The notes: generated from the sequence alone by a model not told the origin. Counted from the first letter of the stretch, positions 2,670 through 62,685 are shown. The stretch is 64,000 bases of DNA from an uncultured Alphaproteobacteria bacterium (GCA_934216505.1 CAKQBW010000001.1:85788-149787), one strand, 5' to 3'. Translations and numbers: made by a program.

Positions 2670-2741
2670 GGTAAAAAGTCTGTTGAATCAATGGGGAATT
2701 TTTATATTAAAAATTTCGGACGATATTTTGTTAAATTATTC

Positions 2742-2770
2742 TTGACAAGGTAAAAAAAATAAGGTATAAT
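2742..2770 (+). promoter_or_regulatory. consensus sigma70 promoter (TTGACA-17-TATAAT) upstream of rpmH
   Basis: TTGACA at 2742-2747, 17-nt spacer, TATAAT at 2765-2770. An AAGGAG RBS precedes the ATG at 2803. Confidence 0.7.
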
Positions 2771-2802
2771 TCCCCCATTATTTTAGAACAAGGAGTTAAA
2801 AG

Positions 2803-2943
2803 ATGACAACAAAACGTACATATCAACCTGGAAAATTGGTTCGCACACGTCGTCATGGTTTTCGTGCCCGTATGGAGACAAAAGGGGGACAAAAAGTGTT
2901 GAACGCCCGTCGTGCCAAAGGTCGTAAGACTTTAAGTGCTTAA
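2803..2943 (+). CDS. rpmH: 50S ribosomal protein L34
   Basis: 46-aa ORF absent from the ORF track. Translation [46 protein letters not shown] is the canonical L34 sequence. It is immediately followed by rnpA, the conserved arrangement. Confidence 0.9.
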
Positions 2944-3016
2944 GGACGAATTTAATCAATTCACGGAAAGCACCTGAATTTTTTTATCGGGTGCTTTTTC
3001 TTTTGGGAAGAACACG

Positions 3017-3373
3017 ATGTCTTTGATTCGGATTAAACGCCATTTTGATTTTGTGGAGATGCGTCAAGCCCCCTTAAAGGCTTTCACGCATTCTTTTGTA
3101 TTACAGGTGCGCCCCACGGATAAAAATCAGACCAGAATAGGTTTTACGGTTTCTAAAAAAATTTCTAAATTAGCGGTTGTTCGGAATCATTTGCGCCGTC
3201 AAATGCGGGAAATTGCCCGTTTATCGCCTGAATTACAGGAGAAATATCCCAGCCATGATTTAATTTTAGTGGCCCGACATGAGGCTTTAAATCGTTCTTA
3301 TCAACAACTGACACAAGATTTTAAATACTTGTTGTCCCATGTAAAAGAAATGAATGATGAAAAAAATGGCTAG
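3017..3373 (+). CDS. rnpA: ribonuclease P protein component
   Basis: 118-aa basic protein directly downstream of rpmH. The conserved rpmH–rnpA–yidD order supports the call. Confidence 0.75.
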   Translation: MSLIRIKRHFDFVEMRQAPLKAFTHSFVLQVRPTDKNQTRIGFTVSKKISKLAVVRNHLRRQMREIARLSPELQEKYPSHDLILVARHEALNRSYQQLTQDFKYLLSHVKEMNDEKNG

Positions 3374-3566
3374 TTTCTTCATACGCATTTATCAACTGAC
3401 TTTTTCATCGTTGGTGGGAAATTGTTGTCGCTTTCAACCAACTTGTTCGGAATATGCACATCAATCTTTTCAAAAATATGGGGTGTTGAAGGGGGGGTAT
3501 TTGACCCTTAAACGGCTTTTACGGTGTCACCCGTTTGCTAAAGGGGGCTATGACCCTGTTCCGTAA
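3354..3566 (+). CDS. yidD: membrane protein insertion efficiency factor YidD
   Basis: Contains the FFIRIYQ…CRFQPTCSEYA…HGxxKGxxLxxxRLxRCHPF YidD signature and overlaps the rnpA 3' end. Confidence 0.8.
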   Translation: MMKKMASFFIRIYQLTFSSLVGNCCRFQPTCSEYAHQSFQKYGVLKGGYLTLKRLLRCHPFAKGGYDPVP

Positions 3567-3645
3567 AAAATAAATAAAGTCATTGACATTTGATGAAAAA
3601 ATCAGTATTCTAACCCACATATTATTCATAATGAAAGGAATTAAA

Positions 3646-5124
3646 ATGGACGAAAATTTGGGACATGAACAACGGCAGATTCGCTTAGAAAAACTTAAAA
3701 AAATGGAAGCAAAAGGAATCAATCCTTATCCCCACACTTTTAAGCCAAATGCGACCTCTGAGACTTTAACAAAAAAGTATGCCGATTTGGCCCCAGATAC
3801 CCAAACAGAAGATGTGGTGATTGTGGCGGGGCGGGTGCGTGCTATTCGTAATTCTGGTATGTTCATGGATATTTATGATACCACGGGAAAAATTCAAATT
3901 TATACTTCCAAAGAAAATTCCTCAGAGGAAGTTTTGGACATGTTGTCTATGGTGGATATCGGTGATATGATTGGGATTGAAGGTACTGTACGGCGGACAA
4001 AACGGGGGGAATTATCGGTCAATACTCAAAAAATTACAATGCTTTCAAAGGCTTTGTTGCCTCTCCCTGAAAAGTTTCATGGTTTAACGGATACAGATAC
4101 AAAGTATCGCCATCGTGAGTTGGATATGATTATGAATCCAGAAACAATTCAAACTTTGATTAAGCGAAGCCAAATTGTGGAATCTATTCGTCAATTATTA
4201 CGGTCAAAGGGATTGATTGAGGTGGAAACGCCTGTGTTGCAATCTATTAAGGGCGGGGCGACAGCCAAACCTTTTATCACACATCACAATTCTTTGGATA
4301 TGGATTTGTTTTTGCGGGTGGCACCTGAATTATTTTTGAAGCGTTTGATTGTGGGGGGGATGCCTGGGGTATTTGAATTTGCCCGTAATTTTCGTAATGA
4401 GGGAATGGATACAACACATAATCCTGAATTTACAGGTTTAGAAATGTATTTGCCCTATACGGACTATAATGATATGGCTGACTTATTTGAAGAAATTGTG
4501 CGTCAAGCCTGTCAAGAAGTCAATGGGACTTTACAAATTGAATACGATGGTAAAAAGTTTGATTTATCTAAACCTTTCGTACGGGTGACGATGAACGATA
4601 TGATTAAAAAATATGCTGGCGTGGATTTCTTGGCTATTTCTTCAGATGAAGAAGCTCGTCAAATGGCAGAAAAGTTAGGTGTTCATGTGGAAAAAAACAG
4701 CGATTGGGGACATTGTATGGCGGCTGTTTTTGAAGAAAAATGTGAAGATCATTTGATTCAGCCAACAATTGTTATGGATCACCCTCGTTCTATGAATCCT
4801 TTATGTAAGACCCACAGAAAAGATAACCGTTTGGTGGAACAATTTGAACCATATATCAATGGGAAAGAAATGGGAAATGCTTATACGGAATTGACAAATC
4901 CTTTGGATCAGCGGGAACGCTTTGAAGCCCAAGTAAAAGCGCGTGAGGCGGGTGATGAAGAAGCCGACATGATGGACGAAGACTTTGTGGAGGCTTTGGA
5001 ACATGGATTGCCCCCAACGGGTGGCATGGGCATTGGTATGGATCGCTTGATTATGTTCTTGACGGGTAATACATCTATTCGTGATGTGTTGGCTTTTCCA
5101 ACAATGCGTAAATTAAGTAAATAA
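3646..5124 (+). CDS. lysS: lysine--tRNA ligase, class II
   Basis: N-terminal OB anticodon-binding domain and class II motifs (FRNEG, GGMGIGMDRL). The ORF track starts at 3583, but the ATG at 3646 has an AAAGGA RBS and matches the usual LysS N-terminus (MDENLG…). Confidence 0.85.
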   Translation: MDENLGHEQRQIRLEKLKKMEAKGINPYPHTFKPNATSETLTKKYADLAPDTQTEDVVIVAGRVRAIRNSGMFMDIYDTTGKIQIYTSKENSSEEVLDMLSMVDIGDMIGIEGTVRRTKRGELSVNTQKITMLSKALLPLPEKFHGLTDTDTKYRHRELDMIMNPETIQTLIKRSQIVESIRQLLRSKGLIEVETPVLQSIKGGATAKPFITHHNSLDMDLFLRVAPELFLKRLIVGGMPGVFEFARNFRNEGMDTTHNPEFTGLEMYLPYTDYNDMADLFEEIVRQACQEVNGTLQIEYDGKKFDLSKPFVRVTMNDMIKKYAGVDFLAISSDEEARQMAEKLGVHVEKNSDWGHCMAAVFEEKCEDHLIQPTIVMDHPRSMNPLCKTHRKDNRLVEQFEPYINGKEMGNAYTELTNPLDQRERFEAQVKAREAGDEEADMMDEDFVEALEHGLPPTGGMGIGMDRLIMFLTGNTSIRDVLAFPTMRKLSK

Positions 5125-5140
5125 CTTATAAGGAGGAAAA

Positions 5141-5398
5141 ATGAAGGAGTTATTAAAAAACTTAATGAATTTGGATAAACCCTTTTTAACAAAGGATTTA
5201 GCACCTAAACTGGCTCCCTTTGCGTGGATAATTTATGTCATCGCTTTGATTATTTTGGCGGTTGCAACATTAGGGGCGCTCAGATTACTTTTTGAAATGT
5301 ATTTGTCGTCTTTTGTTTTGGCGATGTTGGGGATTTTTGCGGAATTTGCGATTGTACGCATGTTTTGCGAGTACTTGGCTTCTCATAACAAGAAATAG
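5141..5398 (+). CDS. small hypothetical membrane protein (two predicted TM helices)
   Basis: Strong RBS (TAAGGAGGAAAAATG). Hydrophobic 85-aa product with no recognisable family. Confidence 0.4.
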   Translation: MKELLKNLMNLDKPFLTKDLAPKLAPFAWIIYVIALIILAVATLGALRLLFEMYLSSFVLAMLGIFAEFAIVRMFCEYLASHNKK

Positions 5399-5409
5399 GT
5401 GGAGTCTGT

Positions 5410-5486
<77 letters not shown>

Positions 5487-5494
5487 AAATTTTT

Positions 5495-5935
5495 ATGACC
5501 CAATTTGTTCAGGCAACCAGTGTTGAAATTGAGGGACAAGCGGTCTTGATTCAAGGACCAGCAGGGGTGGGGAAAACTTCTTTGGCTTTGAAGTTGATAG
5601 AACGTGGAGGAAATTTAATTTGTGATGATATAACCGTTTTATCTTTGAAAAACAACAGGATATTTTGTAAAGTTCAAGAAAAACTTTATGGAAAAATTGA
5701 ACTGAAAGGCTTAGGGATAATCCAAAATATGGCTGTTTGTCAGGAGGCCCCTTTGGTGTGCGTGATTCGGTTGCATGCGGATAAAACAGAACGCTTTCCT
5801 GAAGCTGATCAAAAAATGGAAATTTTAGGACAAAAAATACCTGTCTTTGATTTTTTTTCTTGCGAAACGACCTATCTTTGGGTATTATATGCTTTGAAAG
5901 CATTAAAAGGGGAACTCTCTTTATTGAAGGAGTAA
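5495..5935 (+). CDS. hprK: HPr kinase/phosphorylase, short alphaproteobacterial type (C-terminal kinase domain only)
   Basis: P-loop GPAGVGKTSLAL. Sits in the conserved cluster with EIIA(Man) and NPr. The ORF-track start at 5459 lies inside the tRNA; the ATG at 5495 is the more plausible start. Confidence 0.7.
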   Translation: MTQFVQATSVEIEGQAVLIQGPAGVGKTSLALKLIERGGNLICDDITVLSLKNNRIFCKVQEKLYGKIELKGLGIIQNMAVCQEAPLVCVIRLHADKTERFPEADQKMEILGQKIPVFDFFSCETTYLWVLYALKALKGELSLLKE

Positions 5936-6361
5936 ATGATGTTAGGAATTGTTATTGTGGCCCATAATTTTTTGGCCGATTCTATGAAAAGTGTTGTGGA
6001 ACATGTAGTGGGTAAGTTGCCTGATGTTTTATGTGTTAATGTCTTGCCTGAAGATGATATAGAGCAAAAAAGAGCGGAAATTAGTGAAAAAATTAAACAA
6101 GCTGACAAAGGAAAAGGCGTTGTTCTTTTGACCGATATGTTTGGGGGGACTCCCTCAAATTTGGCTATTTCTTTGATGCGGGAGGGGAAAATTGAAGTAA
6201 TTTCAGGTATGAATGTGCCGATGTTGGTAAAACTCGTTCGTCTGCGGAGGAAAAAATTAGCTGAAGCCGTTCAAAAAGCGACTGATTCTGGACGACACTA
6301 TATTATGGTCGCTTCAAATTTTTTGGAGAAAAAAAATGACGAAAGCAATAAAAACAGTTAA
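5936..6361 (+). CDS. PTS EIIA component, mannose-family (PTS-Ntr-like regulatory branch)
   Basis: N-terminus MLGIVIVAHNFLADS is typical of EIIA-Man. The start overlaps the hprK stop (TAAATGATG). Confidence 0.7.
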   Translation: MMLGIVIVAHNFLADSMKSVVEHVVGKLPDVLCVNVLPEDDIEQKRAEISEKIKQADKGKGVVLLTDMFGGTPSNLAISLMREGKIEVISGMNVPMLVKLVRLRRKKLAEAVQKATDSGRHYIMVASNFLEKKNDESNKNS

Positions 6362-6614
6362 GATAATCAATGTTAGGGGATTGCATGCTCGTGCAACAGC
6401 GGAATTTGTGAAGTTGGCCGATTCTTTTTCGTGTGAAATTTTTGTTTCAAATCCAGATAATTTAAAAGTGTCAGGGAAATCAATCATGGGGTTATTGATG
6501 CTGGGGGCTCCTCTAGGAACTTCTTTGGTTATTGAAGCGGACGGGGAGGAGGCCGAAAAGGCTGTGCAATCCTTGGCTACTTTAGTCAATAATAAATTTG
6601 GAGAAGAGGTATGA
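6336..6614 (+). CDS. HPr-family phosphocarrier protein (NPr/HPr)
   Basis: GLHARATAEFV shows the His15 region of the HPr fold. 92 aa, downstream of hprK and the EIIA gene. Confidence 0.75.
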   Translation: MTKAIKTVKIINVRGLHARATAEFVKLADSFSCEIFVSNPDNLKVSGKSIMGLLMLGAPLGTSLVIEADGEEAEKAVQSLATLVNNKFGEEV

Positions 6615-7096
6615 CAGAAAAAACAAGAAAAATTATATTGGGTGGCTTTCTTTTTATGGGCTTGCTTGTTTTGTTAGGGTGGTTGCATCAAACCTCATTA
6701 AAAGAGCAGAAAAAAGATGATTATATTTTATATGCTTTATTTAAGAAAACAGATGGGGTGGATATAGGAGCTCCTGTGCGTTTATCAGGAGTGCCTGTAG
6801 GACACGTTTTTAAACAAGAGTTGGCTGATAATTACGAGGTGCGTTTGACGCTTTCTTTTAATAAAAAATTGGAGTTGCCGTTGGATACTTCTGTGGCAAT
6901 TGAAACCGATGGATTTTTGGGGTCAAAACATATTGAATTGATTCCTGGGGCGGACGAAGAAATGTTGGATTCTGGGGATACATTGGAATATACTCAAGAT
7001 ACCATTTTATTAGATGAACTTTTGGCGAAGGTCAATTCTTATATGGAACAAAAAAAAGAATCAAAGGAGAATAAAAATGAAGAAAAATCCAATTGA
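6611..7096 (+). CDS. MlaD/Mce-domain protein (outer-membrane lipid asymmetry maintenance)
   Basis: N-terminal TM helix and the Mce motif GVDIGAPVRLSGVPVGHV. Confidence 0.65.
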   Translation: MTEKTRKIILGGFLFMGLLVLLGWLHQTSLKEQKKDDYILYALFKKTDGVDIGAPVRLSGVPVGHVFKQELADNYEVRLTLSFNKKLELPLDTSVAIETDGFLGSKHIELIPGADEEMLDSGDTLEYTQDTILLDELLAKVNSYMEQKKESKENKNEEKSN

Positions 7097-7520
7097 AACA
7101 GTTCTGGGGCTTTTTGTGTTGGTATTTGCGGGTATTTTTTTGGTATATGCTTCCTCACGAATAGACACAAAAAAAGTGGATGGTTATACGGTTAAGGCTA
7201 ATTTTTCAAAAATAGGGGGCTTGGAAGTTGGCTCTGATGTGCGTATTTCAGGAATCAAAGTGGGGGCTGTTTTGGGGACTTCTTTGAATAAAGAGGATTA
7301 TACCGCTGATGTTCTCCTGATAATTGATTCAAATGTTCAACTGCCCAAGGATACGCAAGTAAGTATTGCTGATGTGGGGTTGATGGGGGGAAAGTATGTA
7401 CGTTTGGAACCAGGTAAAAGCCACGATTTTATTAAACCCAATGAGCGATTGATGCAAACAAAAAATTATAAATCTTTGGAAGATAATATCTCTGAATTTA
7501 TTTTCCTTTCAACGAAGTAG
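7077..7520 (+). CDS. second MlaD/Mce-domain paralog
   Basis: AAGGAG RBS before the ATG at 7077. Product has a TM helix plus Mce-like GSDVRISGIKVGAV. The ORF-track start at 7014 is probably too far upstream. Confidence 0.6.
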   Translation: MKKNPIETVLGLFVLVFAGIFLVYASSRIDTKKVDGYTVKANFSKIGGLEVGSDVRISGIKVGAVLGTSLNKEDYTADVLLIIDSNVQLPKDTQVSIADVGLMGGKYVRLEPGKSHDFIKPNERLMQTKNYKSLEDNISEFIFLSTK

Positions 7521-11040: not shown

Positions 11041-12563
11041 TTTTCAAAAGGCAGTCCTTTTTTAATAAATTCTTTTTGAAAGACATCTAACATCTTTCTT
11101 TTTTGTTCATCGGTTATTTTTTCCCGTTTGAGGATATGGTGAGAAATATCCGAAAATTTACCCATCATCAGTTGATGAATTACCTCTTGTGCTTTCAAAA
11201 TTTGTTTTTCGTCCATTTGGTCCAACAATCCTTCGTTCAAGGCCATAAACAAACCGATTTGCGTTATTGCATCAACAGGAAAGTATTGCCTTTGGGTGAG
11301 GGCTGAACGAATAGCCTGACCTCTTTTTAACTTCATTAAAGTGGTCTTATCCATTTGCATGCCAAACTTTGAAAAAGATTCTAATTCTTCAAATTGGGCA
11401 TAAAATAGTTTTAAAGGACCAATTAAGGACCGATAAGCAGGCAGTTGGGCTTCTCCGCCCACACGGGAAACAGATCGCCCTGTGTCAATGGCTGGCATAA
11501 TGCCTTTTTGATACAGGTCATTGGACAGGTAAATTTGTCCATCTGTGATTGAAATGACATTCGTTGGAATATAGGCCGATATGTTGCCAGCTTCAGTCAG
11601 AACAATAGGTAGGGCTGTTAAAGAGCCCCCCCCAAATTTGGGGCGTAAATGAGTGGCCCGTTCCAATAATCTAGAGTGTAAGTAAAAAATATCCCCAGGA
11701 AAGGCTTCTCGGCCAGGAGGCGTTTTTAACAACAGCGACATTTGACGATAAGTTTGAGCATGGGCTGTTAAATCGTCATAAACAACCAAGACATCTTTTC
11801 CTTGATGCATAAAGTATTCTCCAATAGCTGTTGCCGAATAAGGGGCGATGTACTGCATCCCCGCTTCTTCATCACCACTGGCAATGACAACAACGCTTTG
11901 AGTGAGCATATCGTGTTCCTCTAAAGTATGAATGACACGGGCTGTATTACTTTGTCTTTGTCCGATGGCACAGTAAATACAAATAACGCCTGTTTCTTTT
12001 TGGTTTAAAATCGTATCCAAAGCGATGGCGGTTTTTCCAGTTTGTCTATCGCCCAAAATTAATTCCCGTTGTCCGCGTCCAATAGGAGTAAAGCAATCTA
12101 TGGCCTTAATTCCTGTTTGTAAGGGGGTATCCACAGGCGCACGCATCATAATTTCAGGGGCAGGGTGTTCTATTTCAGAAAACTCTTTTGTTAAAACTTT
12201 CCCCTTTTTATCCAAAGGTTCCCCTAATGGATTGATGATGCGTCCCAAAAGAGCGTTGCCCACGGGAATACTTAAAACTTGATGTGTTTGGGTTGCTTTA
12301 TCGCCCGCCTTTAAATTTTGGGAGTTTTTTAAAAACACAATGCCGACACTTTCCTCATTCAGGTTATGCACCATCGCAATAGCCTCATTTTTAAAATGGA
12401 GTAATTCGTTCAATTTGACTTCGCTGAGCCCTGAAACCAAGGCGGTTCCTGCGGCCATAGATAAAATTTCATTGTTTTCTTTTACTTTCAGGGAAAAAGA
12501 AGTTTTCTTGATGGCTTCCGTTGTGATTTTTTTTGCTGTTTCAGACACACTTTTTTTCATCAT
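11037..12563 (-). CDS. atpA: ATP synthase alpha subunit
   Basis: Walker A GDRQTGKT and the alpha-subunit signature. Confidence 0.9.
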   Translation of the reverse strand: MMKKSVSETAKKITTEAIKKTSFSLKVKENNEILSMAAGTALVSGLSEVKLNELLHFKNEAIAMVHNLNEESVGIVFLKNSQNLKAGDKATQTHQVLSIPVGNALLGRIINPLGEPLDKKGKVLTKEFSEIEHPAPEIMMRAPVDTPLQTGIKAIDCFTPIGRGQRELILGDRQTGKTAIALDTILNQKETGVICIYCAIGQRQSNTARVIHTLEEHDMLTQSVVVIASGDEEAGMQYIAPYSATAIGEYFMHQGKDVLVVYDDLTAHAQTYRQMSLLLKTPPGREAFPGDIFYLHSRLLERATHLRPKFGGGSLTALPIVLTEAGNISAYIPTNVISITDGQIYLSNDLYQKGIMPAIDTGRSVSRVGGEAQLPAYRSLIGPLKLFYAQFEELESFSKFGMQMDKTTLMKLKRGQAIRSALTQRQYFPVDAITQIGLFMALNEGLLDQMDEKQILKAQEVIHQLMMGKFSDISHHILKREKITDEQKRKMLDVFQKEFIKKGLPFEK

Positions 12564-24060: not shown

Positions 24061-24079
24061 TTGTATTCCTTTGAGTTTT

Positions 24080-24175
24080 TAGGTGGAAGGACACGACCTG
24101 CCTAAAGGATAAAATGGGCTGCTTTCTTCCGAACCTGACCCGCTGTTTTAACCCAGCACCCATATCCTTCCAAAA
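24080..24175 (-). ncRNA. ffs: signal recognition particle RNA (small 4.5S-type SRP RNA)
   Basis: The minus-strand transcript contains GGUCAGGUUCGGAAGAAAGCAGCC, matching the conserved domain IV apex (E. coli GGUCAGGUCCGGAAGGAAGCAGCC). Ends pair GGAAGGA/UCCUUCC. It lies immediately upstream of dnaX, the conserved ffs–dnaX synteny. Exact ends are uncertain. Confidence 0.6.
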
Positions 24176-29882: not shown

Positions 29883-30581
29883 TTATTTCATGTGTATTAA
29901 AAAAAAGCTGATAAAAGCGGCAACCCCTAGGGCAGGGCCATAGGCTCCCTTTTTATGGATATTTAAAGCAGAAAAGAGGACAAAAAATAAAAATGATAAA
30001 ATTAAGGTGCTACTCAATCCAATCACCCCTAACCATGACCCTAAGGCGGTAATCATTTTAACATCGCCACAGCCCAATTCTTTTTTAGGTGAAAAAGCCA
30101 AAGCTAGTACAGACAAAATGGAAACAAGGTAGCCACTAAAAGCTCCCGCTAAGGCCATTTCAACGGAAAAAGAAGCGGATTGGGTGGCAAACAAAATTCC
30201 CAATAATAAAAGGGGGAGGGTGAAAAAATCAGGTAAAAGGCAATACAGTGCATCTACAATGATGGAAGCACATACAATCCATATAAAAAGACATGCTAAA
30301 ATCTGTAAGGGGGCAGGAATCAATAAGGAGACCAAAGCAAAAAGAACTGCACATAAACCTGCCCAAAAAAGGCCCCAATAGTAAAGTTTATTTCTGATTT
30401 TTTTCCACAGTAAATAGCGTTGTTCGTTTTTTTTATGGGGGATTCTGGGGCGATGAAACAAACGCAAAATAATTTCACCTGGATCGGCGGGAATCAACTT
30501 TCCAAACCTTCCCGAAAAAAAGGGGAGGATGAAACCCAATAGCATGCCCCATACAGCAAAAAGAATAATTTTGTTTTCCAT
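29883..30581 (-). CDS. A24-family prepilin peptidase (no N-terminal methyltransferase or zinc domain)
   Basis: Polytopic membrane protein with LGCGDVKMITALGSWLG, matching the second catalytic Asp region GGGDVKL of type IV prepilin peptidases. Confidence 0.6.
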   Translation of the reverse strand: MENKIILFAVWGMLLGFILPFFSGRFGKLIPADPGEIILRLFHRPRIPHKKNEQRYLLWKKIRNKLYYWGLFWAGLCAVLFALVSLLIPAPLQILACLFIWIVCASIIVDALYCLLPDFFTLPLLLLGILFATQSASFSVEMALAGAFSGYLVSILSVLALAFSPKKELGCGDVKMITALGSWLGVIGLSSTLILSFLFFVLFSALNIHKKGAYGPALGVAAFISFFLIHMK

Positions 30582-37115: not shown

Positions 37116-37436
37116 ATGGAAATTTTAAATGATACAACTTTTGATAACAAAGTCTTAGTGGCCCCTAAGGCTGTTTTGGTTGATTTTTTTGCCACTTGGT
37201 GTGGCCCTTGTCGGCAAATGTTGCCCGTCGTTGAGGAAGTTGCGCAAGAACTTCAAGAAAAAATTGATGTTTATAAGGTAGATGTAGATGAGGCTTCGCT
37301 TATCTCTGATCGGTATGAAATTCAAAGTATTCCTCATTTGATTCTATTTAAGGCAGGAAAGATTTTGGCCCAAAAGAATGGAGCCTGTAGCAAAGCCGAA
37401 TTGTTAAAATGGATAGATGAAAACACAAAGGTCTAG
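37116..37436 (+). CDS. trxA: thioredoxin
   Basis: WCGPC active site; 106 aa. Confidence 0.9.
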   Translation: MEILNDTTFDNKVLVAPKAVLVDFFATWCGPCRQMLPVVEEVAQELQEKIDVYKVDVDEASLISDRYEIQSIPHLILFKAGKILAQKNGACSKAELLKWIDENTKV

Positions 37437-37562
37437 TACTTATAGCGCCATATTCACACCTGACACCATAAAATACACTACAATCTGCAAGGCGATGGTA
37501 TACAGCCGTTTGCGTTTAAGGCATGGACGCTTATATGCTGCTTAGCACGACGAGACAATCTC

Positions 37563-37826
37563 CTACGCATTTTTACCTCCTTTCATTTTCTTACGAAACA
37601 ACGGATAAGACAATTCTTTTTGCGTATCCGCTAACAACTTTAATAACTCATTATCAAAAGTTTCAAAAGAATCATTAGCACAAAAATAATCTTTCCAACG
37701 CTTCAACAATCTCTCTTGACGATTTATGCAACACTTTTGATTTTCTAAAGTGTCGTATAATTTTTTCATCTCATTATCCATAAATGCGTTTATTTTCAAT
37801 AACGCTTTCATATCTTTCTTAAACAT
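37563..37826 (-). CDS. hypothetical protein (87 aa, Lys-rich, Cys pair)
   Basis: ORF only; convergent with trxA. Confidence 0.3.
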   Translation of the reverse strand: MFKKDMKALLKINAFMDNEMKKLYDTLENQKCCINRQERLLKRWKDYFCANDSFETFDNELLKLLADTQKELSYPLFRKKMKGGKNA

Positions 37827-38004
37827 TTTTTCTCCTTTCTAAATATACATAATATAAATTATGCGACACTTTTTGTCTGATTGTTTTAGCGATTTATTAT
37901 TATATTTTAATATGTTATAAGAAATTTTATGGTTAGCTTATTTTTGCCAAAAAAGTCCTTTTCCAAAATCATTTGAAAAATATTTTCTTTTTATGATTTT
38001 TTTC

Positions 38005-38033
38005 TTGACAATTTTTTTAAAATGCGCTAAATT
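38005..38033 (+). promoter_or_regulatory. sigma70-like promoter for tRNA-Cys (TTGACA-17-TAAATT)
   Basis: TTGACA at 38005-10. The tRNA starts at 38050. Confidence 0.45.
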
Positions 38034-38049
38034 TCTCTTGTTTTGAGAT

Positions 38050-38124
38050 GGCCGGTTGGCAGAATGGCTTATGCAGAGGACTGCAAATCCTTTTATACTG
38101 GTTCGATTCCGGTACCGGCCTCCA
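38050..38124 (+). tRNA. tRNA-Cys (anticodon GCA)
   Basis: Acceptor GGCCGGT/ACCGGCC, anticodon loop CTGCAAA, T-arm ACTGG TTCGATT CCGGT, encoded CCA. Confidence 0.85.
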
Positions 38125-38144
38125 AAAATTATGACAAATAGTTC

Positions 38145-38172
38145 TTGCTTTTTAAAAAACTTTTTGTTATAA
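38145..38172 (+). promoter_or_regulatory. sigma70 promoter for tRNA-Asn (TTGCTT-16-TATAAT)
   Basis: Perfect -10 TATAAT at 38167-72. The tRNA starts at 38184. Confidence 0.5.
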
Positions 38173-38183
38173 TGACCACTGTT

Positions 38184-38258
38184 TCCAGCGTAGCTCAGTG
38201 GTAGAGCAATCGGCTGTTAACCGATTGGTCGTAGGTTCGAGCCCTACCGCTGGAGCCA
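38184..38258 (+). tRNA. tRNA-Asn (anticodon GTT)
   Basis: Acceptor TCCAGCG/CGCTGGA, D-arm GCTC AGTGGTA GAGC, anticodon loop CTGTTAA, T-arm GTAGG TTCGAGC CCTAC, encoded CCA. A terminator-like hairpin follows at 38262-38295. Confidence 0.85.
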
Positions 38259-38428
38259 ATTACAAGAGGAAGGTTGTTTTGCCCTCCTCTTTTTTATTTT
38301 AAACGAAAACGCCTTATTCGGCCAAAGATAATTTGAATACAGAAATACTCAATCAATTTACTTTTTTTGCTTGATTTTTGTTTTTTTTTCGTATCCTAAA
38401 AGTATAGGATCTTACTGAAAGGAAAAAA

Positions 38429-39223
38429 ATGACAAAAAAAACTGAAGAAAAGCCCCAATTAGTTCGCCAAGATGCTGATTTGCTGAACCCCATTGTCTCT
38501 ACTTGGACATATAAAGGAGAGATTATGGAGTTTATGGGGGTAAAGAGAACCCGCACCTTTGAAACAATGGACCACCCTGATTATGAACGAGGGGTGGGAT
38601 TCCGGGAACAAGAAGTTTGGATCCCCCGCCCTGGTCCAATGAAAGTCTTTAATAAAGATGGACTTTTAATTGAAGAAGGTACAGTAGATTTCGTTAAGGC
38701 TAAAGATGATATTGGCTCATGGAATTTGACTTATGTTGGGAAAATGACACGTTATGGCTATGATAAAAAGGGGAAACTTTTGTATCGTAGGGAAAGTGAA
38801 TTTTCACCTAAAGATTCTCATATAGAATGGAGTAAGCATTATGACAAAGAGGGTCAATTAGTAAGTGAATCCACTTATGATAAATACGGCAAGGAACGTT
38901 CATTTAAATTTTTTAACTCAGATTCAGGGGAACTAAGTTTCCGCACTTTTAATTCAAAGAGCGGGAAAGGCTATTATTTCTTTGGTGAGGAAAAAGCGGA
39001 TAAAAATCACCCTGAAGCACAGCGTTTAATTCGGGACAATATCGCCAGCAAGAAAACAGATAAAAAAGCACGGCGGGCCGCTTTAAAGGAAATTTTGGCG
39101 GCACGGCAAGAGGGGCAGACAGAAAAAGCACAAGAAATTCGTCATGAATTTGATAAAAGACCTCTACCAAAACCCTCTTTATGGGGTAAATTGACGACTC
39201 TTGTTAAAGGTAATCGGCGTTAA
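38429..39223 (+). CDS. MORN / YwqK-family repeat protein
   Basis: Tandem Y-x-x-G-x-x-x-G-x-W repeats (YGYDKKGKLLY, YDKEGQLVSESTY, YDKYGKERSF). The C-terminus is Lys/Arg-rich. Confidence 0.5.
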   Translation: MTKKTEEKPQLVRQDADLLNPIVSTWTYKGEIMEFMGVKRTRTFETMDHPDYERGVGFREQEVWIPRPGPMKVFNKDGLLIEEGTVDFVKAKDDIGSWNLTYVGKMTRYGYDKKGKLLYRRESEFSPKDSHIEWSKHYDKEGQLVSESTYDKYGKERSFKFFNSDSGELSFRTFNSKSGKGYYFFGEEKADKNHPEAQRLIRDNIASKKTDKKARRAALKEILAARQEGQTEKAQEIRHEFDKRPLPKPSLWGKLTTLVKGNRR

Positions 39224-39242
39224 AAAAGGAAAATCTTTTTTT

Positions 39243-39275
39243 AGGGAGGGCATTTGCCCTCCCCTTTTTGGGGTT
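39243..39275 (+). terminator. rho-independent terminator after the YwqK-family gene
   Basis: GGGAGGGCATTTGCCCTCCC hairpin followed by TTTTT. Confidence 0.7.
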
Positions 39276-39504
39276 ATTCTGCCCCACTCTGTCATTCCCT
39301 CACTTTTTACTTTTCCTATCATTTCCGCCGATGCGGGAATCTCGTCAAAAAGTACTTTATTTTACAAGATACCCGATCAGGTCGGGCATGACAATTCCCT
39401 GTTTTGGCCTGTATTTATGGGCTGTGTGAGGGAAAAAGAGAAATTTCAAAAAGCGGGGGTAAAAACAGGCGATAAAGCCCGTCAATAAAGGGAAGTAAGG
39501 TATA

Positions 39505-39524
39505 ACAAAAAGGATCGTTTTTGT
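39505..39524. promoter_or_regulatory. palindromic candidate operator site 1 (ACAAAAAgGATCGTTTTTGT)
   Basis: Near-perfect 20-bp palindrome centred on GATC, about 170 bp upstream of the pilin-like gene A. Confidence 0.4.
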
Positions 39525-39637
39525 CAATATACTTTTTCCCGTGTTTGAGGATTTTTATTATTTTACAATAACATATTGATTTTACATGAGAAAACACTCA
39601 TTTTAAAGTTTGATGGAATTGTCCTTTTTCCCCTATT

Positions 39638-39657
39638 CCAAAAACGATCGTTTTTGT
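39638..39657. promoter_or_regulatory. palindromic candidate operator site 2 (cCAAAAAcGATCGTTTTTGT) overlapping the putative -35/-10 of pilin-like gene A
   Basis: 18 of 19 positions match site 1. The AAAAACGATCGTTTTT core is a perfect palindrome. Centre-to-centre spacing to site 1 is about 133 bp. A TATAGT -10 candidate lies at 39658-63 and GGGAG RBS at 39683-87. Confidence 0.45.
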
Positions 39658-39694
39658 TATAGTAATTTTCATTCAATTTTGTGGGAGATTTTAC

Positions 39695-40942
39695 ATGCAA
39701 AAAACAAATGAATCAGGGCGCAGTATGGTTGAAATGCTGGGCGTGTTGGCGATTATTGGCGTCCTCTCTGTCGGTGGCGTAGCGGGATTTAACCTTGCCA
39801 TGAATAAACATTGTGCTAATAATACTGTGGTCTATGTCAATCAGTTAGCTGTCCAAGGAACAAGTCAAATGCTGATGGGCGTAAAACCTTCTTTGGGGCA
39901 ATACCCTGACAAAACTCCCAGTGGATACCCGAGTACCCTCACGACAGAAGAAACTAATCCCAATGCTTTTTATGTAAAAATATCTCAAGTGCCGAGCGCT
40001 GTTTGCAAGCAAATCTTAGGTCTTCAAAAAGGGTGGCAGGCCGTCAATGACATTGGCTTTTATAATGGGGCAACGACTTGCGATGACAAAGAAAATGTGG
40101 ATATGTGGTTTGAAATTAAATCTTCCCTGAATAAAGAAAATGAAAATGTCCATTGTAAATCTCATCAGGATTGTTATAACTGGTTAGGATATGAGGCCCG
40201 TTGTTCTCCCAAAGGAATTTGTCTCCCATACTGTGGAGAAAATCAAGTTAAAACACCCGTTGGTTGTTGTGATAAAAATCGTGTTTTCAATGGTGGCTGT
40301 TGCATAAGTGATGTTATTGAAGAAAACGGCATTAAAAAATGCTGTGCCGCCAATGCTGATGTTTCTATTTGTTGCCCTGAAAACGAATGGGGAATCAATA
40401 TAAAGGGTGTTTTATCATGCATCTCTTGTGATGATCCTCGTGCTTTAGACAGCGGCTTTAGTTGGGGGTATTGTAAAGTTTGCCCTAACCGTCTTCGTAA
40501 TGCGAACCAATGTGCTCTCGGTTGCGCAGATCCATACGCCGTCAAAACATTAAGTGGATATTGCTATTGTCCAATGGACAGGCCTGTCCAAACACGTGAT
40601 GGAAAATGCCATCCCTGTCATTATGAAGAACGTAGTTCTGCCCAACCTGTTATAGGCATGCTTACCTTAGGGAGTCAAGGCATGATACACTACTGTAATC
40701 GTCGTGGCATAACCTACTCTTGGCCCTGTATTGAGGGAGAGGTCGGTATGGCTAAAAATGATACTCTTGCCATGGCAGATGGGAGCACCTATACCGCAAC
40801 CACAACGGAAGGCGCCTGTCTGGCCTGTGATACAGTGAATATTTCAAAACTCCCCTATCAAGCCCAATGTGAATCTTGTGGGGGACACTGGGACGGTGAA
40901 AATTGGTACACAGGCGTTTGTGTGCCAAAAGAAACAGACTAA
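39695..40942 (+). CDS. type IV prepilin-like Cys-rich secreted/surface protein, paralog A
   Basis: N-terminus MQKTNESG|RSMVEMLGVLAIIGVLSVGG (Gly, Glu at +5, hydrophobic helix), 23 aa identical to paralog B. Shares the VCKQILGL… block with paralogs B and C. The C-terminal ~280 aa contain about 40 Cys (CC and CxxC clusters). Confidence 0.55.
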   Translation: MQKTNESGRSMVEMLGVLAIIGVLSVGGVAGFNLAMNKHCANNTVVYVNQLAVQGTSQMLMGVKPSLGQYPDKTPSGYPSTLTTEETNPNAFYVKISQVPSAVCKQILGLQKGWQAVNDIGFYNGATTCDDKENVDMWFEIKSSLNKENENVHCKSHQDCYNWLGYEARCSPKGICLPYCGENQVKTPVGCCDKNRVFNGGCCISDVIEENGIKKCCAANADVSICCPENEWGINIKGVLSCISCDDPRALDSGFSWGYCKVCPNRLRNANQCALGCADPYAVKTLSGYCYCPMDRPVQTRDGKCHPCHYEERSSAQPVIGMLTLGSQGMIHYCNRRGITYSWPCIEGEVGMAKNDTLAMADGSTYTATTTEGACLACDTVNISKLPYQAQCESCGGHWDGENWYTGVCVPKETD

Positions 40943-40998
40943 TTCCTTGAAATAATTTGATTTTTCCATAAAAAAAGCCCCGTTCAGAGGCTTTGAAA

Positions 40999-41073
40999 TG
41001 GTGGGTGCGACAGGGATTGAACCTGTGACCCCTACCGTGTGAAGGTAATGCTCTCCCGCTGAGCTACGCACCC
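40999..41073 (-). tRNA. tRNA-Val (anticodon CAC)
   Basis: Minus-strand cloverleaf: acceptor GGGTGCG/CGCACCC, D-arm GCTC AGCGGGA GAGC, anticodon loop TTCACAC, T-arm ACAGG TTCAATC CCTGT, encoded CCA. On the minus strand a terminator hairpin plus T-run follows at plus-strand coordinates 40970-40994. Confidence 0.85.
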
Positions 41074-41145
41074 AAGTTCAATACTCAGGATTATAATATA
41101 AAGACTTTTATATGTCAAGCAAAAAAAACGCTCTTTCAAATTTTT

Positions 41146-41718
41146 TTGTTGAAAAATAATTTTGTATATGATAATTATAAAACTTATTTACACAAAAGAG
41201 GACAAATGAAAATTGAATTTAAAAATACTGATTCTTTTGAAAATCTGATAAGCACTATGAAAAAGGAAGATGAAATTGAATGCCCTGCTTTGGATTTTAT
41301 GGCGCAAAATTTAAAAGAATTACAAGAACGAATCAAGGCTGTGATTTCTTTGGGGGGCACCGTTTATTTCGTTAAGGAAAATTTAAGGTTTTCCCCCGAA
41401 AAGACACCTCAACAAGAAATGTTGTTTCACCTGTTAGAGGTCTTTAAAAACTTTGAGCAGGAAAATATCTTAAAAAGGCGGCGATTGGGAATTCAAAAAG
41501 CCAAAGAACAAGGAAAGTATGCCAAAGAACGGCGAAAAAAACTGCCCTCGGATTTACAAGAGGCCCTCTTAAAAGACAGAGAAAACGGCTTAAATGTATC
41601 GGAAATCATCCAAAAATACAAAATAAGCCGAAAGACATTTTATAACTATTCAAAAAATTCAACAAATAACATTTTAAAAAACATAGGCATTTTGTTGGGC
41701 AATGACTTGAAAGAATAA
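41146..41718 (+). CDS. serine recombinase (resolvase/invertase) family remnant: C-terminal half of the catalytic domain plus HTH, N-terminally truncated or degenerate
   Basis: LDFMAQNLKELQERIKAVISLGGTVYFV…EMLFHLLEVFKNFEQENILKRRRLGIQKAKEQGKYAKERRKK aligns with the LDRLGR…AEFERxxIxERTxxG region of Tn3/gamma-delta resolvases. The C-terminal …SEIIQKYKISRKTFYNY is the recombinase HTH. The N-terminal YxRVSTxxQ Ser-nucleophile block is absent. Adjacent to tRNA-Val. Confidence 0.55.
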   Translation: MLKNNFVYDNYKTYLHKRGQMKIEFKNTDSFENLISTMKKEDEIECPALDFMAQNLKELQERIKAVISLGGTVYFVKENLRFSPEKTPQQEMLFHLLEVFKNFEQENILKRRRLGIQKAKEQGKYAKERRKKLPSDLQEALLKDRENGLNVSEIIQKYKISRKTFYNYSKNSTNNILKNIGILLGNDLKE

Positions 41719-41721
41719 AAG

Positions 41722-42099
41722 TTATTGATTTTGATTAGCCAAGAATCTTTTTTGACGTTCTACATAGACTTGATAACTGTTCCAGTCTGCTTGAATTTCC
41801 TCAGAAAGTTCCTGAGCATAAGTTTGAAAATAAGCATTGGCTTTTATTCTTAACAACGATTTTTCTTTGTTTCCAGGTATTTCTGGCCCGTCCCAAGGCA
41901 AAGCCACGATGGCTTTTTCTTTGGTGGCCAAATTAAAATGAACATCACCAATAGCCAATGTCTTTTCAAAAGAAAGGTTGTGATTCCTTAAATAATCACG
42001 GTGAGAACATTCCCGCCCTTTTGAATCACGATTTTGACTTTTCGCCCAAATGGCAATCACTAATTCATTGTTTTCGTTGCCTGCGACGATATATCTCAT
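41722..42099 (-). CDS. hypothetical protein (125 aa), no family recognised
   Basis: ORF with reasonable coding statistics, convergent with the recombinase remnant. Confidence 0.35.
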   Translation of the reverse strand: MRYIVAGNENNELVIAIWAKSQNRDSKGRECSHRDYLRNHNLSFEKTLAIGDVHFNLATKEKAIVALPWDGPEIPGNKEKSLLRIKANAYFQTYAQELSEEIQADWNSYQVYVERQKRFLANQNQ

Positions 42100-42236
42100 A
42101 GTATTTTTCCTCCTTTAAGAACAAGTTTATTTTACCACAGAATTAAATTTTGTCAAGTTTATCTTTTAATGGGACAAAAATTGACATTTTGTATAAAGTT
42201 TGTTATACTGACTTTGAAAAGTATCAGGAAACTAAA

Positions 42237-42773
42237 ATGGTCCCTAAAGAAAAACTATTATTGCTTTCGTGTTGCGCCCCCTGCTCTGTCGGGGTTATTG
42301 AAGATTTAAAGCGTCAAGACGTGGATTTTACGGTCCTGTTTTTTAATCCGAACATTCAGCCCGTTGAGGAATATCAAAAGCGATTAGAGGAAAACAGGCG
42401 TATCTGTGCTCTGTATCATGTTCCTTTTATTGATTTAGAATATACGCCTCAGAAATGGAAAGAATTTGTCAAAGGCTTGGAAAACGAGCCCGAAAAAGGA
42501 AAAAGGTGTGATAAATGCTTTTACTTTCGGTTGAAAAGAACAGCACAATATGCCAAAGAAAATGGCTATACGCGTATTTCTTCAGTGTTGGGGATTTCTA
42601 GGTTCAAGGACTTTAATCAGGTTTGTCGGGCTGGATTAAAAGTTCAGGAGGAAGAAAATATCCCCTATGATACCGAAAATTGGCGCAAAAAAGGACGGCT
42701 GGAACGTTCAGAACATTTATCCAAAGAGTTGTCCCTTTACCGTCAAACATACTGTGGGTGCAAGCCGAGGTAA
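42237..42773 (+). CDS. queH: epoxyqueuosine reductase QueH (DUF208)
   Basis: LLLLSCCAPCSVGVIE…FFNPNIQPVEEYQKR is the QueH CCAPC and NPNIHP signature. The ATG at 42237 is preferred over the ORF-track start at 42150. Confidence 0.7.
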   Translation: MVPKEKLLLLSCCAPCSVGVIEDLKRQDVDFTVLFFNPNIQPVEEYQKRLEENRRICALYHVPFIDLEYTPQKWKEFVKGLENEPEKGKRCDKCFYFRLKRTAQYAKENGYTRISSVLGISRFKDFNQVCRAGLKVQEEENIPYDTENWRKKGRLERSEHLSKELSLYRQTYCGCKPR

Positions 42774-42802
42774 AGATTGGCTTTGGTCTAAACGACAAAT
42801 CA

Positions 42803-43882
42803 CTATTGACATAATGCGTAGAAGGTGCTGTAACGAGGGATGCCGTTCATGCTCTGACTGAAGGTACGGACGCCGAGTGCGTAGCTAGAATCATGACTGT
42901 TATTCGTCCAATAATAAGAACTCCCAAAAGCCACTTTCAAAGCGTTCCAGTCCGCCCCTGTACAATTACTCCCAGAACAATAACCAGTTTCATTATTATA
43001 TCCTCCCGTAATCCCTAAGTCAGAGAGCAAAGCTAAACTTTTTCCATGCGCCAAACACCAATTGCGTGCGGCCCACCAAGATATACCACTAGAAGAATAC
43101 AAAAATGTTTTGCCATTATAGGTTGTTTCTGTCCCATTGTCTAATGCTATACAGGTACCTGTTGTCGGAACAGCACCATTCTCCCATTTTCCCGTAATTT
43201 GACAATACTTCCCTGCTTCTTTACAATCGGCATTTGTCGTGCAATCCCCTGTGAGGTCTGTCTTACATTCCCCGTTTCCAGAGTTATCGCTCGGTTGCCA
43301 AATGCCTTCAGCACATTGACAGTAGCCATTCACACAAGTGGCCCCACCCGAACAACTGTCTGTGCATTCATCGCCTTTGGGCCCTGATGGCGCAGGGTCG
43401 TTGGGGGACAAATCGTTATTATAGGTAATCGTGGTACAACCGTCATCAATCTTTCGGATAATCCCATTTTCTCCTTTCATGGCTTTCATTTGGGTACAAA
43501 CTTCGTCTGGGACATTTTCCAAGGTCAAACTAAAACGCTTATCAGTATTTTTATTCCAATTGGCTAAGCCCGTAAATTTCGCCCCGCCAACTTCGTTATC
43601 TGTGAATTCGCCCGGTGTCGGAGCCTCAGCCCCTCTTTGAATCTGTGTGGAAACTACGACTGCCCGAAGGGAAGCTTGTTGCAACAATTCATTTGCCCGA
43701 TGTTTATTCATGGCGGTGGTATAGCCCACTATACCGCCCACACTTAAAACCCCAATAATCGCCAAAACGCCCAGCATTTCCACCATAGACCGCCCTGATT
43801 CTTCTTGCCGATAAAGGCGGGCGCCAAAAAGATAATGTTTTCCCCTACCCGAAAAGACTTTTTCTTTAATTGGACTTTTCAT
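42803..43882 (-). CDS. type IV prepilin-like Cys-rich protein with C-terminal C-type-lectin-like domain, paralog B (start codon uncertain)
   Basis: Contains …ESG|RSMVEMLGVLAIIGVLSVGG, identical at the protein level to paralog A. Has RAVVVSTQIQ and VCTQMKAM…DDGCTTITYNNDL blocks shared with paralog C, then an EGF-like Cys-rich stretch. The C-terminus has a GISWWAARNWCLAHGKSLALLSDL…YYWTNNSHD…YALCQ pattern resembling a C-type lectin-like domain (WxxAxxxCxxxGxxLAxxxS…C-terminal Cys). Confidence 0.5.
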   Translation of the reverse strand: MKSPIKEKVFSGRGKHYLFGARLYRQEESGRSMVEMLGVLAIIGVLSVGGIVGYTTAMNKHRANELLQQASLRAVVVSTQIQRGAEAPTPGEFTDNEVGGAKFTGLANWNKNTDKRFSLTLENVPDEVCTQMKAMKGENGIIRKIDDGCTTITYNNDLSPNDPAPSGPKGDECTDSCSGGATCVNGYCQCAEGIWQPSDNSGNGECKTDLTGDCTTNADCKEAGKYCQITGKWENGAVPTTGTCIALDNGTETTYNGKTFLYSSSGISWWAARNWCLAHGKSLALLSDLGITGGYNNETGYCSGSNCTGADWNALKVAFGSSYYWTNNSHDSSYALGVRTFSQSMNGIPRYSTFYALCQ

Positions 43883-44129
43883 ATTCTAAAACTCCCATAA
43901 TTAAAAAATCGCTGTGATGAGCAGCGGTTGGAAGCTAGAAAACTATTACAGAAATAGCGTCGCATATTGGGGCGTAAATAGGCCTGTATTTTGCGACCAT
44001 CCAACCATAAAGATTGGAATTTTTACATCGTTTGATGTCTGTATTGAAGGTTTTCTAGGCCTCCACCAGAGGAATCACCTCTGGCAAATTCACACTAGCA
44101 AAAAATAAATTAAATATCAAGTACAAAAA

Positions 44130-44155
44130 ACACCCCCTTGAAAATAAGGAGGCGT
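44130..44155 (-). terminator. rho-independent terminator downstream of gap (minus strand)
   Basis: Minus strand ACGCCTCCTT attttc AAGGGGGTGT hairpin (G-U wobbles) followed by TTTTTT. Confidence 0.6.
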
Positions 44156-44176
44156 TTTGATTAAATAGGGTTTAAA

Positions 44177-45268
<1,092 letters not shown>

Positions 45269-62595: not shown

Positions 62596-62685
62596 GGAAG
62601 GGTGGTCGAGTGGTTTAAGGCTCCGGTCTTGAAAACCGGCGTGGGGGCAACCCCACCGAGAGTTCGAATCTCTCCCCTTCCGCCA
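62596..62685 (+). tRNA. tRNA-Ser (anticodon TGA), long variable arm
   Basis: Acceptor GGAAGGG/CCCTTCC, anticodon loop CTTGAAA, variable arm GCGTGGGGGCAACCCCACCGA, T-arm AGAGTTCGAATCTCT, encoded CCA. Confidence 0.85.

Follow-up and report, generated by a model that had tools for sequence, protein, structure and literature searches.

In Pseudomonas aeruginosa, pilA groups with their accessory genes adjoin tRNA-Thr, and old divergent pilin alleles are swapped among near-identical strains at this fixed chromosomal place. In Neisseria pilE/pilS, the 5' pilin part and the 3' end are both conserved, and the variable body between them undergoes frequent switching. Type IVb tip minor pilins, such as CofB of enterotoxigenic Escherichia coli (ETEC) CFA/III and TcpB of Vibrio cholerae, start with a prepilin-type N-terminus and a pilin head, from which extended beta-rich linkers lead to a terminal binding domain. 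Here we describe a locus that shares features with each of these systems. It lies in a 64,000-nucleotide (nt) stretch of DNA (the window) from an uncultured Alphaproteobacteria bacterium (GCA_934216505.1 CAKQBW010000001.1:85788-149787), where a 6.7-kb block at 37437-44176, between trxA and gap, holds two genes for pilin-like proteins of 415 and 359 amino acids (aa), termed pil415 and pil359. The block is probably a native backbone with slots, in which anchor genes stay fixed and strains swap, truncate or delete the genes of pilin-stem surface adhesins.

To compile the gene inventory of the block, open reading frames (ORFs) were listed, the DNA was scanned for tRNA genes and Rfam families, and the proteins were searched against family models. 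The window has a match in a metagenome contig of ENA. Other loci compared with the block are labelled L082, L086 and so on; all comparisons rest on metagenome assemblies. The proposed backbone would consist of five conserved anchors: trxA on the left (37116-37436, + strand; Pfam Thioredoxin, 3.4e-30; TIGR01068), the pair tRNA-Cys(GCA) and tRNA-Asn(GTT) (38050-38124 and 38184-38258, both +), tRNA-Val(CAC) (40999-41073, -), the epoxyqueuosine reductase gene queH (42237-42773, +; Pfam QueH, 3.1e-58) and, on the right, the glyceraldehyde-3-phosphate dehydrogenase (GAPDH) gene gap (44177-45250, -; TIGR01534, 8.6e-132). All three tRNA genes were called by ARAGORN and Rfam. Four slots between the anchors would carry lineage- and strain-specific cargo, chiefly two members of a very large modular surface-protein family with a prepilin-type N-terminus and pilin head.

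An earlier note on this DNA had offered two readings of the block, a decayed integrated element or a hypervariable surface-protein locus anchored at tRNA genes. The second agrees well with strain-level data: contigs from other samples have flanks about 98–99% nt identical to the window and differ from it inside the block, so that gene order is not the same in all relatives but varies among strains. L086 lacks window positions 38332-40923, and with them pil415 (39695-40942, +) and an upstream 264-aa ORF (38429-39223, +). Microhomology (GCCAAAGATAA / GCCAAAAGAAA) is seen at its junction, where the final codons of pil415, ACAGACTAA, are still present. Because the C-terminus that these codons encode (...VPKETD) is native to the family, being conserved in other members, the arrangement indicates a deletion in L086 and not an insertion in the window. 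Three further loci from separate samples, L088, L089 and L090, show another structure. L088 and L090 lack 38310-39225, the interval of the 264-aa gene (L089 begins downstream of it), and L088 and L089 lack 481 nt at 43454-43934 that comprise the promoter and first ~143 codons of pil359 (42803-43882, -); L090 ends before this point. Short-microhomology or illegitimate deletions thus generate variation at the locus.

In addition to losses, pil415 undergoes replacement of an exchangeable central cassette (40175-40855, +; 681 nt). L088, L089 and L090 carry an unrelated sequence of ~690 nt in its place, and L214, at 94% nt identity, shows the same breakpoints and cassette type as L088. No nt similarity of the window to L088, L090 or L214 was found at exactly 40175-40855, and the flanks align. 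At the protein level, alleles are 93–99% identical over residues 1-150, 35–43% over residues 151-385 and 93–97% over residues 386-415. Each cassette type is nearest to one in a second protein group whose N-termini are only ~56% identical, and thus cassette types cross lineage boundaries. Modules of the family are also shuffled at other loci. In L213, a copy of pil415 with 96% identity lies at a wholly different locus beside tsaD, with homology stopping at the stop codon, and L087 carries, at another locus, a chimera of a pil415-type upstream module and a pil359-type body.

A different pattern was seen for pil359, which is conserved in position and hypervariable in sequence, and is likewise an adhesin candidate. 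Against a background of about 2 nt differences per 250 nt between the window and L086, positions 43000-43999 contain 143. Synonymous divergence (dS) in pil359 is 0.37–0.41 versus 0.004–0.07 in flanking genes, and the ratio of nonsynonymous to synonymous divergence (dN/dS) is 0.13–0.18. Raised dS with low dN/dS points to old divergent alleles probably imported by recombination, and not to local positive selection. A second divergent interval, 37250-37999, has 57 differences, 5–10x background, and spans the 3' end of trxA, the adjoining spacer and an 87-aa ORF in slot 1 (37563-37826, -). This ORF is uncertain as a gene; its changes among strains (5 synonymous, 18 nonsynonymous) are close to neutral, and it may not be a real gene. 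Its slot holds an unrelated, conserved 234/224-aa gene in L082/L083. An inverted repeat (I1, 39710-39820 versus 43691-43801, 77%) was considered as an inversion site and rejected as merely the shared N-terminal coding region of the two pilin-like genes; no assembly showed the segment between them in inverted arrangement.

Repeated pilin modules could in principle yield chimeric joins during metagenome assembly, and several contigs do break in or near such modules: L001 inside pil359, L089 15 nt after a palindrome upstream of pil415, and L213 inside a second such palindrome. However, the variant structure of L088, L089 and L090 was assembled independently from three samples, L001 reproduces the arrangement of the window, the variant junctions lie in unique sequence and not in repeats, and there are contigs that run through the complete locus and reach unique core genes at either end. 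An assembly artefact is thus an extremely improbable explanation of the strain differences.

Comparison with a different species separated backbone from cargo. Relatives for synteny were found through the SLT (lytic transglycosylase) protein, whose gene adjoins trxA in L082, L083 and L084 as well; homologs of this protein come from metagenome-assembled genomes labelled 'Alphaproteobacteria bacterium'. L082 (GCA_045598925.1) is 75–80% identical at the nt level, and its neighbouring proteins are 65–86% identical in aa. Its gene order is trxA, a 234-aa ORF, tRNA-Cys, tRNA-Asn, a 124-aa ORF, tRNA-Val (-), a 128-aa ORF (-), queH, an 80-aa ORF, a 425-aa pilin-like gene (-) and gap. Because the same order is kept between trxA and gap, the tRNAs, queH and the gap-proximal pilin-like gene appear to form a conserved backbone, with differing contents between them. 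The queH product is 86% aa identical to its L082 counterpart at the same position and tRNA-Val is 91.6% nt identical. The tRNA-Cys/tRNA-Asn pair recurs in L082, L086 and L088, and the position of gap is kept in L082, L086, L088 and L214. The more distant L084 has none of the block's synteny.

GAPDH itself is 97% aa identical to its L082 counterpart versus 74–86% for neighbouring proteins. Recent transfer of gap was considered and rejected, as a stretch of ~4.8 kb containing gap shows an ordinary ~79% nt identity to L082; because of this ordinary nt identity, the high protein identity is read as a probable sign of constraint. Scanning one-genome-per-species contigs with GAPDH proved useless as a synteny route, returning matches of 74–78% with no shared neighbours. 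These nearest GAPDHs belonged to metagenome-assembled genomes (MAGs) labelled Phycisphaerales, Spirochaetes, Negativicutes and Bacteroidota, an odd taxonomic spread.

The other reading in the earlier note, a decayed integrated mobile element, proposes that an island entered at a tRNA via a serine recombinase and then lost its ends and integrase activity. A truncated serine recombinase gene, res170 (170 aa; 41206-41718, +), does lie 132 nt from tRNA-Val, as that note had observed. Moreover, res170 and a following 125-aa ORF (41722-42099, -) are absent in L082, where an unrelated ORF lies within 70 nt of tRNA-Val. The block is also loosely packed, as the note had remarked, with a coding fraction of 0.75 versus 0.91 and 0.94 on its two sides, and contains three of the five tRNA genes in the window. 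Such an insertion had been expected to reveal itself through adjacency of trxA and gap in relatives, deviating composition and direct repeats of a tRNA 3' end at the block borders. Instead, trxA and gap were adjacent in no relative found, strains missing sub-segments only, and the 14-, 16- and 20-nt 3' ends of all three tRNAs each occur once in the 64-kb window. In GC content at third codon positions (GC3) and in codon usage, the block genes are within about 1 standard deviation of 49 core genes with three exceptions: pil359 deviates on both (z +3.2 for GC3, z -2.3 for the codon score), queH on GC3 (z +2.6) and the 87-aa ORF on the codon score (z +2.5). On both measures res170, the 125-aa ORF, the 264-aa ORF and pil415 are inside the core range.

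Furthermore, when the uncharacterized ORFs were searched against phage and defence families (PHROGs, PADLOC), nothing matched but the recombinase itself, which is the block's sole trace of a mobile element, and the anchors, including queH and the gap-proximal pilin-like gene, are kept in another species. Small recombinases of the resolvase/invertase type are, in addition, not the usual tRNA-targeting integrases. Given the lack of tRNA-end repeats, the native composition, the backbone in L082 and the lack of trxA–gap adjacency, the integrated-element reading of the whole block is not supported, and we regard it as very unlikely. At most, slot 3 (res170 and the 125-aa ORF, about 0.9 kb) could be the remnant of an element. 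The 125-aa ORF is found in all strains of this species compared; L082 has its 128-aa ORF at this place, with no detectable similarity.

The truncated gene res170 also bears on how the variation might arise. Its product matches the Resolvase profile over positions 50-145 of 145 (3.6e-12) and a PHROG DNA invertase over profile positions 64-206 of 254 (1.6e-24), with a weak HTH_23 match. It aligns to ordinary serine recombinases of ~190 aa (~35% identity) from their residue ~40, and its start corresponds to residue ~35-40 of full-length relatives, so that the region of the catalytic Ser is missing. No Y-x-R-V-S-T-x-x-Q motif was found in the upstream-extended frame, and the DNA upstream holds the tRNA-Val promoter. 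The catalytic Arg motif DRLGR is replaced by DFMAQ (ALDFMAQN versus SxDRLxRx in relatives), and the oligomerization helix and C-terminal helix-turn-helix (HTH) are kept. Thus, with the Ser region missing and DRLGR reading DFMAQ, res170 is predicted to be an N-terminally truncated, catalytically dead small serine recombinase unable to catalyse recombination. As a dead remnant, it is not the engine of the variation described above. Five assemblies carry the ORF intact, and its changes among them (6 synonymous, 4 nonsynonymous) are weakly suggestive of constraint. No close relatives of res170 were found outside this species.

Upstream of pil415 lie two palindromes, ACAAAAAGGATCGTTTTTGT (palindrome 1, 39505-39524) and CCAAAAACGATCGTTTTTGT (palindrome 2, 39638-39657), neither with an assigned strand. 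They are 133 bp apart, the second lies 38 nt before the pil415 start codon, and a promoter-like site (39581-39609) lies between them; the pattern has 2 matches in the window versus 0.01 expected. The same pair at 133-bp spacing precedes family genes in L087, L115 and L194. In L170 (Ga0310786_10088335, 1688-2400), a pair at 132 bp with unrelated interior sequence, whose site 2 is a perfect 26-bp palindrome (TGATCAAAAACGATCGTTTTTGATCA), precedes a gene for a small Sec-signal protein with the lectin-like motif MNWWAAVIWC...YAFCT and no pilin stem. A scan of metagenomes for the 18-mer of the palindromes returned 120 loci, mostly on unrelated environmental contigs, and 32 of the 120 also have a gene for a small serine recombinase. 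In about 24 of the 32, the distance from the palindrome centre to the start of the recombinase gene downstream is 100–340 nt, which is the position expected for the site of a resolvase itself. On L188 (627-2397), a metagenome contig of 56% GC, an intact 203-aa serine recombinase gene stands beside a pair of CAAAAACGATCGTTTTTG sites with 131 bp between them, and a 293-aa gene on the opposite strand comes next, a layout that would be expected of a small invertible promoter with its own invertase. The palindromes have two features in common with crossover sites of the Din family (PMC3241671, Table 3), the 12-2-12 layout and the AAAC/GTTT inner core. Given this layout and their place upstream of recombinase genes elsewhere, the palindromes are very probably binding sites of serine-recombinase type.

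These observations raise the alternative that pil415 is governed by a switch, in which the palindromes bind a small serine recombinase and either an unlinked active enzyme flips the ~113-bp promoter segment, or res170 represses pil415 and genes with the same module. The occurrence of the pair in the window far above chance, its 131–133-bp spacing before family genes and the L170 lectin-like gene, its Din-type layout and core, the association with recombinase genes in the metagenome scan, and the order in L188 (intact recombinase, site A, 131 bp, site B, downstream gene) all speak for such a role, as do the intact res170 ORF and the origin of L214 (with res170) and L087 (with the palindrome-bearing pilin module) from one sample. 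However, none of seven assemblies (the window, L088, L089 in part, L090, L115, L194 and L087) shows the inter-palindrome segment inverted, which is a weak test as an assembly reflects the majority state. The sites are close to perfect palindromes, and their symmetric AT centre offers no polarity to a recombinase and is more typical of an operator; the direct-repeat match (36 nt, 78%) is also longer than the inverted one (23 nt, 96%). Direct and inverted orientation of the two sites cannot be distinguished when each is palindromic. In addition, res170 is only 23–30% identical to the palindrome-associated recombinases, L086 retains it despite having lost pil415 and both sites, and P0359, its closest full-length relative, has no such palindrome upstream, so that no tie of res170 to the palindrome-associated subfamily could be made. 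We therefore consider the switch unlikely. Unlikely, too, is the broader proposal that a small serine recombinase subfamily recognizes CAAAAACGATCGTTTTTG and that, in these gut alphaproteobacteria, pairs of sites spaced by ~132 bp were recruited before many genes for pilin-stem or lectin-like adhesins, with res170 kept as their DNA-binding regulator or an unlinked active paralog flipping the ~113-bp promoter segment.

The upstream region of pil415 contains a further repeated feature, an element of ~100 nt at 39290-39393 (gtcattccc...gcgggaatc...cccgatcaggtcgggcatgac; no strand assigned), within a module of ~450 nt shared by L087, L115 and L194. Three stretches of L087 match it: the first belongs to the upstream module (L087 9611-10126), and the others are separate reversed copies downstream of the pilin gene (11114-11192 and 11245-11345). 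It looks like a miniature repeat element. Translating it gives spurious ORFs.

The preferred reading, a fixed backbone carrying exchangeable adhesin genes, also depends on the nature of the two proteins. The earlier note had described a pair of convergent pilin-like paralogs facing each other. The genes are convergent, with 1.86 kb and four genes between them, and paralogy is limited to the N-terminal ~114 residues (39% identity, E 2e-21), the C-terminal parts having no detectable similarity. The pil415 product has a type IV pilin-like N-terminal domain and a Cys-rich C-terminal body; that of pil359 has a pilin-like stem, a Cys-rich linker and a C-type-lectin-like domain. Both carry ESG immediately before RSMVEMLGVLAIIGVLSVGG, which places Gly at -1 and Glu at +5 relative to the cleavage position of a prepilin-type site, and a hydrophobic helix of ~20 residues follows. 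In 88 homologs, G30, E35, L37 and G38 vary little or not at all. A long N-terminal helix on an antiparallel beta-sheet, the pilin fold, was found. The C-terminus of pil359 shows a C-type-lectin-like fold with conserved Cys pairs and WxxxxxxC / ...ALC motifs. Weak agreement comes from profile matches among PDB sequences to langerin (0.0026) and a fimbrial protein (0.0053). No EPN, QPD or WND tripeptide occurs in the pil359 translation, and sugar binding is thus not to be assumed. The family is very large (>5490 homologs at E<=1e-5), with several members per genome at scattered loci, and some sources label it 'type II secretion system protein' or 'FimT/FimU'. By analogy in layout, pil415 and pil359 may be adhesin-type pilin fusions comparable to type IVb tip minor pilins.

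In the proposed mechanism, the products of pil415 and pil359 would be cleaved by a prepilin peptidase and displayed as adhesins on a pilus-like fibre. A Peptidase_A24 (prepilin peptidase) gene lies at ~29883-30581 of the window, 9 kb upstream. The mosaic structure of the alleles and the raised dS suggest that homologous recombination, through the conserved 5' module (promoter region and pilin domain) and the conserved 3' end, would bring in central cassettes that are old and divergent and stem from other alleles or from paralogs. Several points weigh against this interpretation. Arg occupies position +1 of the predicted cleavage site, an atypical residue there for type IV pilins, and no Pfam or NCBIfam model of pilins or N-methylation sites matches at threshold, the only hit being PilS_N for pil359 (E 0.0014, 19.1 bits versus a cut-off of 22). 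Apart from the prepilin peptidase gene, the window showed no pilus assembly genes, whether for an ATPase, a platform protein or a secretin. Some of the 'strains' could be population consensus sequences, as is inherent in metagenome assemblies, and cassette donors were not identified within one genome, which leaves intragenomic conversion and inter-strain exchange indistinguishable.

The remaining features that the earlier note had listed were largely recovered: the three tRNA genes, the N-terminally truncated recombinase, queH and the two convergent pilin-like genes are all present. Its MORN/YwqK protein exists as the strain-variable 264-aa ORF, with a terminator-like hairpin (39244-39263) 3' of the gene; that label comes down to one weak MORN_2 match (E 0.003, 18 bits), below the Pfam cut-off of 29.6. 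The 87-aa and 125-aa ORFs matched no family in Pfam, NCBIfam, PHROGs or PADLOC. Of the terminators that the note had assigned to each tRNA gene, that of tRNA-Val stands (40994-40974, with a 12/12 sigma-70 consensus promoter at 41118-41090), and none was detected between tRNA-Cys and tRNA-Asn. These two genes, 59 nt apart with a promoter-like site ahead of them (38005-38033), look like one unit. The Rfam scan returned tRNAs and the signal recognition particle (SRP) RNA only, with no riboswitch in the long spacers of the block. Elsewhere in the window, ordinary core genome for the rest, the other two tRNA genes lie at 5410-5486 and 62596-62685, and the bacterial small SRP RNA lies at 24079-24174 (-; 49.3 bits). 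L084 (JGI Ga0307249_10008085), a relative at 55% identity, has at 1-7400 a ParE toxin, an AAA_15/AAA_21 ATPase, a metallo-beta-lactamase-fold protein with a weak Apyc1 match, tRNA-Val(GAC) and tRNA-Leu, upstream of AsmA/S66/SLT genes; this region resembles a patch of defence or accessory genes.

As a kind of locus this is an ordinary one, a polymorphism of pilin/adhesin alleles on a fixed backbone, and the link of palindromes to recombinases is its one unusual feature. It provides a small, clean example of surface diversification in an uncultured, host-associated (gut-type) alphaproteobacterial lineage, in which exchangeable Cys-rich cassettes and lectin-like tips are swapped, truncated and deleted on a fixed tRNA/queH backbone. 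The locus flags proteins likely to face the host or phages, and its repeated pilin modules explain recurrent assembly breaks in these MAGs. If res170 were linked to the palindromes, it would represent a site-specific recombinase turned regulator, domesticated into the transcription factor of a surface-protein regulon, or the system would be a new class of small inverton.

Among described systems, P. aeruginosa pilA resembles this locus in the fixed position of a pilin gene beside tRNA genes, in the swapping of old divergent alleles among near-identical strains and in its allele-specific accessory genes. Here, however, the genes encode large adhesin-type pilin fusions and not major pilins, pil415 exchanges its central cassette only, and two family members share the locus. 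CofB and TcpB share with the present proteins the prepilin-type N-terminus with a pilin head and the extended linkers leading to a terminal domain, and the pil359 leader of ~30 residues is as in type IVb prepilins. They differ in that the proteins described here have no linked pilus operon, an Arg at +1, Cys-rich modules with a C-type-lectin-like end domain, and a hugely expanded family. C-type-lectin-like domains are also found at the tip of the Bdellovibrio Bd2740 fibre and at the C-terminus of Legionella Lcl, where they ride on a trimeric fibre and a collagen-like stalk, respectively; that of pil359 rides on neither but on a pilin stem, and its lack of an EPN or QPD tripeptide is a further difference. 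Neisseria pilE/pilS is matched in the conserved 5' pilin part, variable body and conserved 3' end, and in the 5'-truncated, promoterless copy carried by L088. That copy (of pil359) is, however, of another subfamily than pil415, no silent-cassette array was found near the locus, and the alleles, with their raised dS, look like stable population polymorphism and not like the product of frequent switching. Finally, res170 resembles small serine recombinases, among them Tn3/gamma-delta resolvase, the Din-family invertases and Mpi, in matching the C-terminal half of the Resolvase catalytic domain, the oligomerization helix and the HTH. The palindromes compare with res site I of Tn3/gamma-delta and, through their 12-2-12 arrangement and AAAC/GTTT core, with the Din sites hix, gix, cix and mix, and in other organisms they sit where a recombinase's own site is expected. 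Unlike in those systems, neither the catalytic Ser region nor either Arg of DRLGR is left in res170, the palindromes lie 1.5 kb from it and are near-perfectly symmetric with an AT centre, and, in contrast to Mpi-type promoter invertons of Bacteroides, the segment between them was found in a single orientation.

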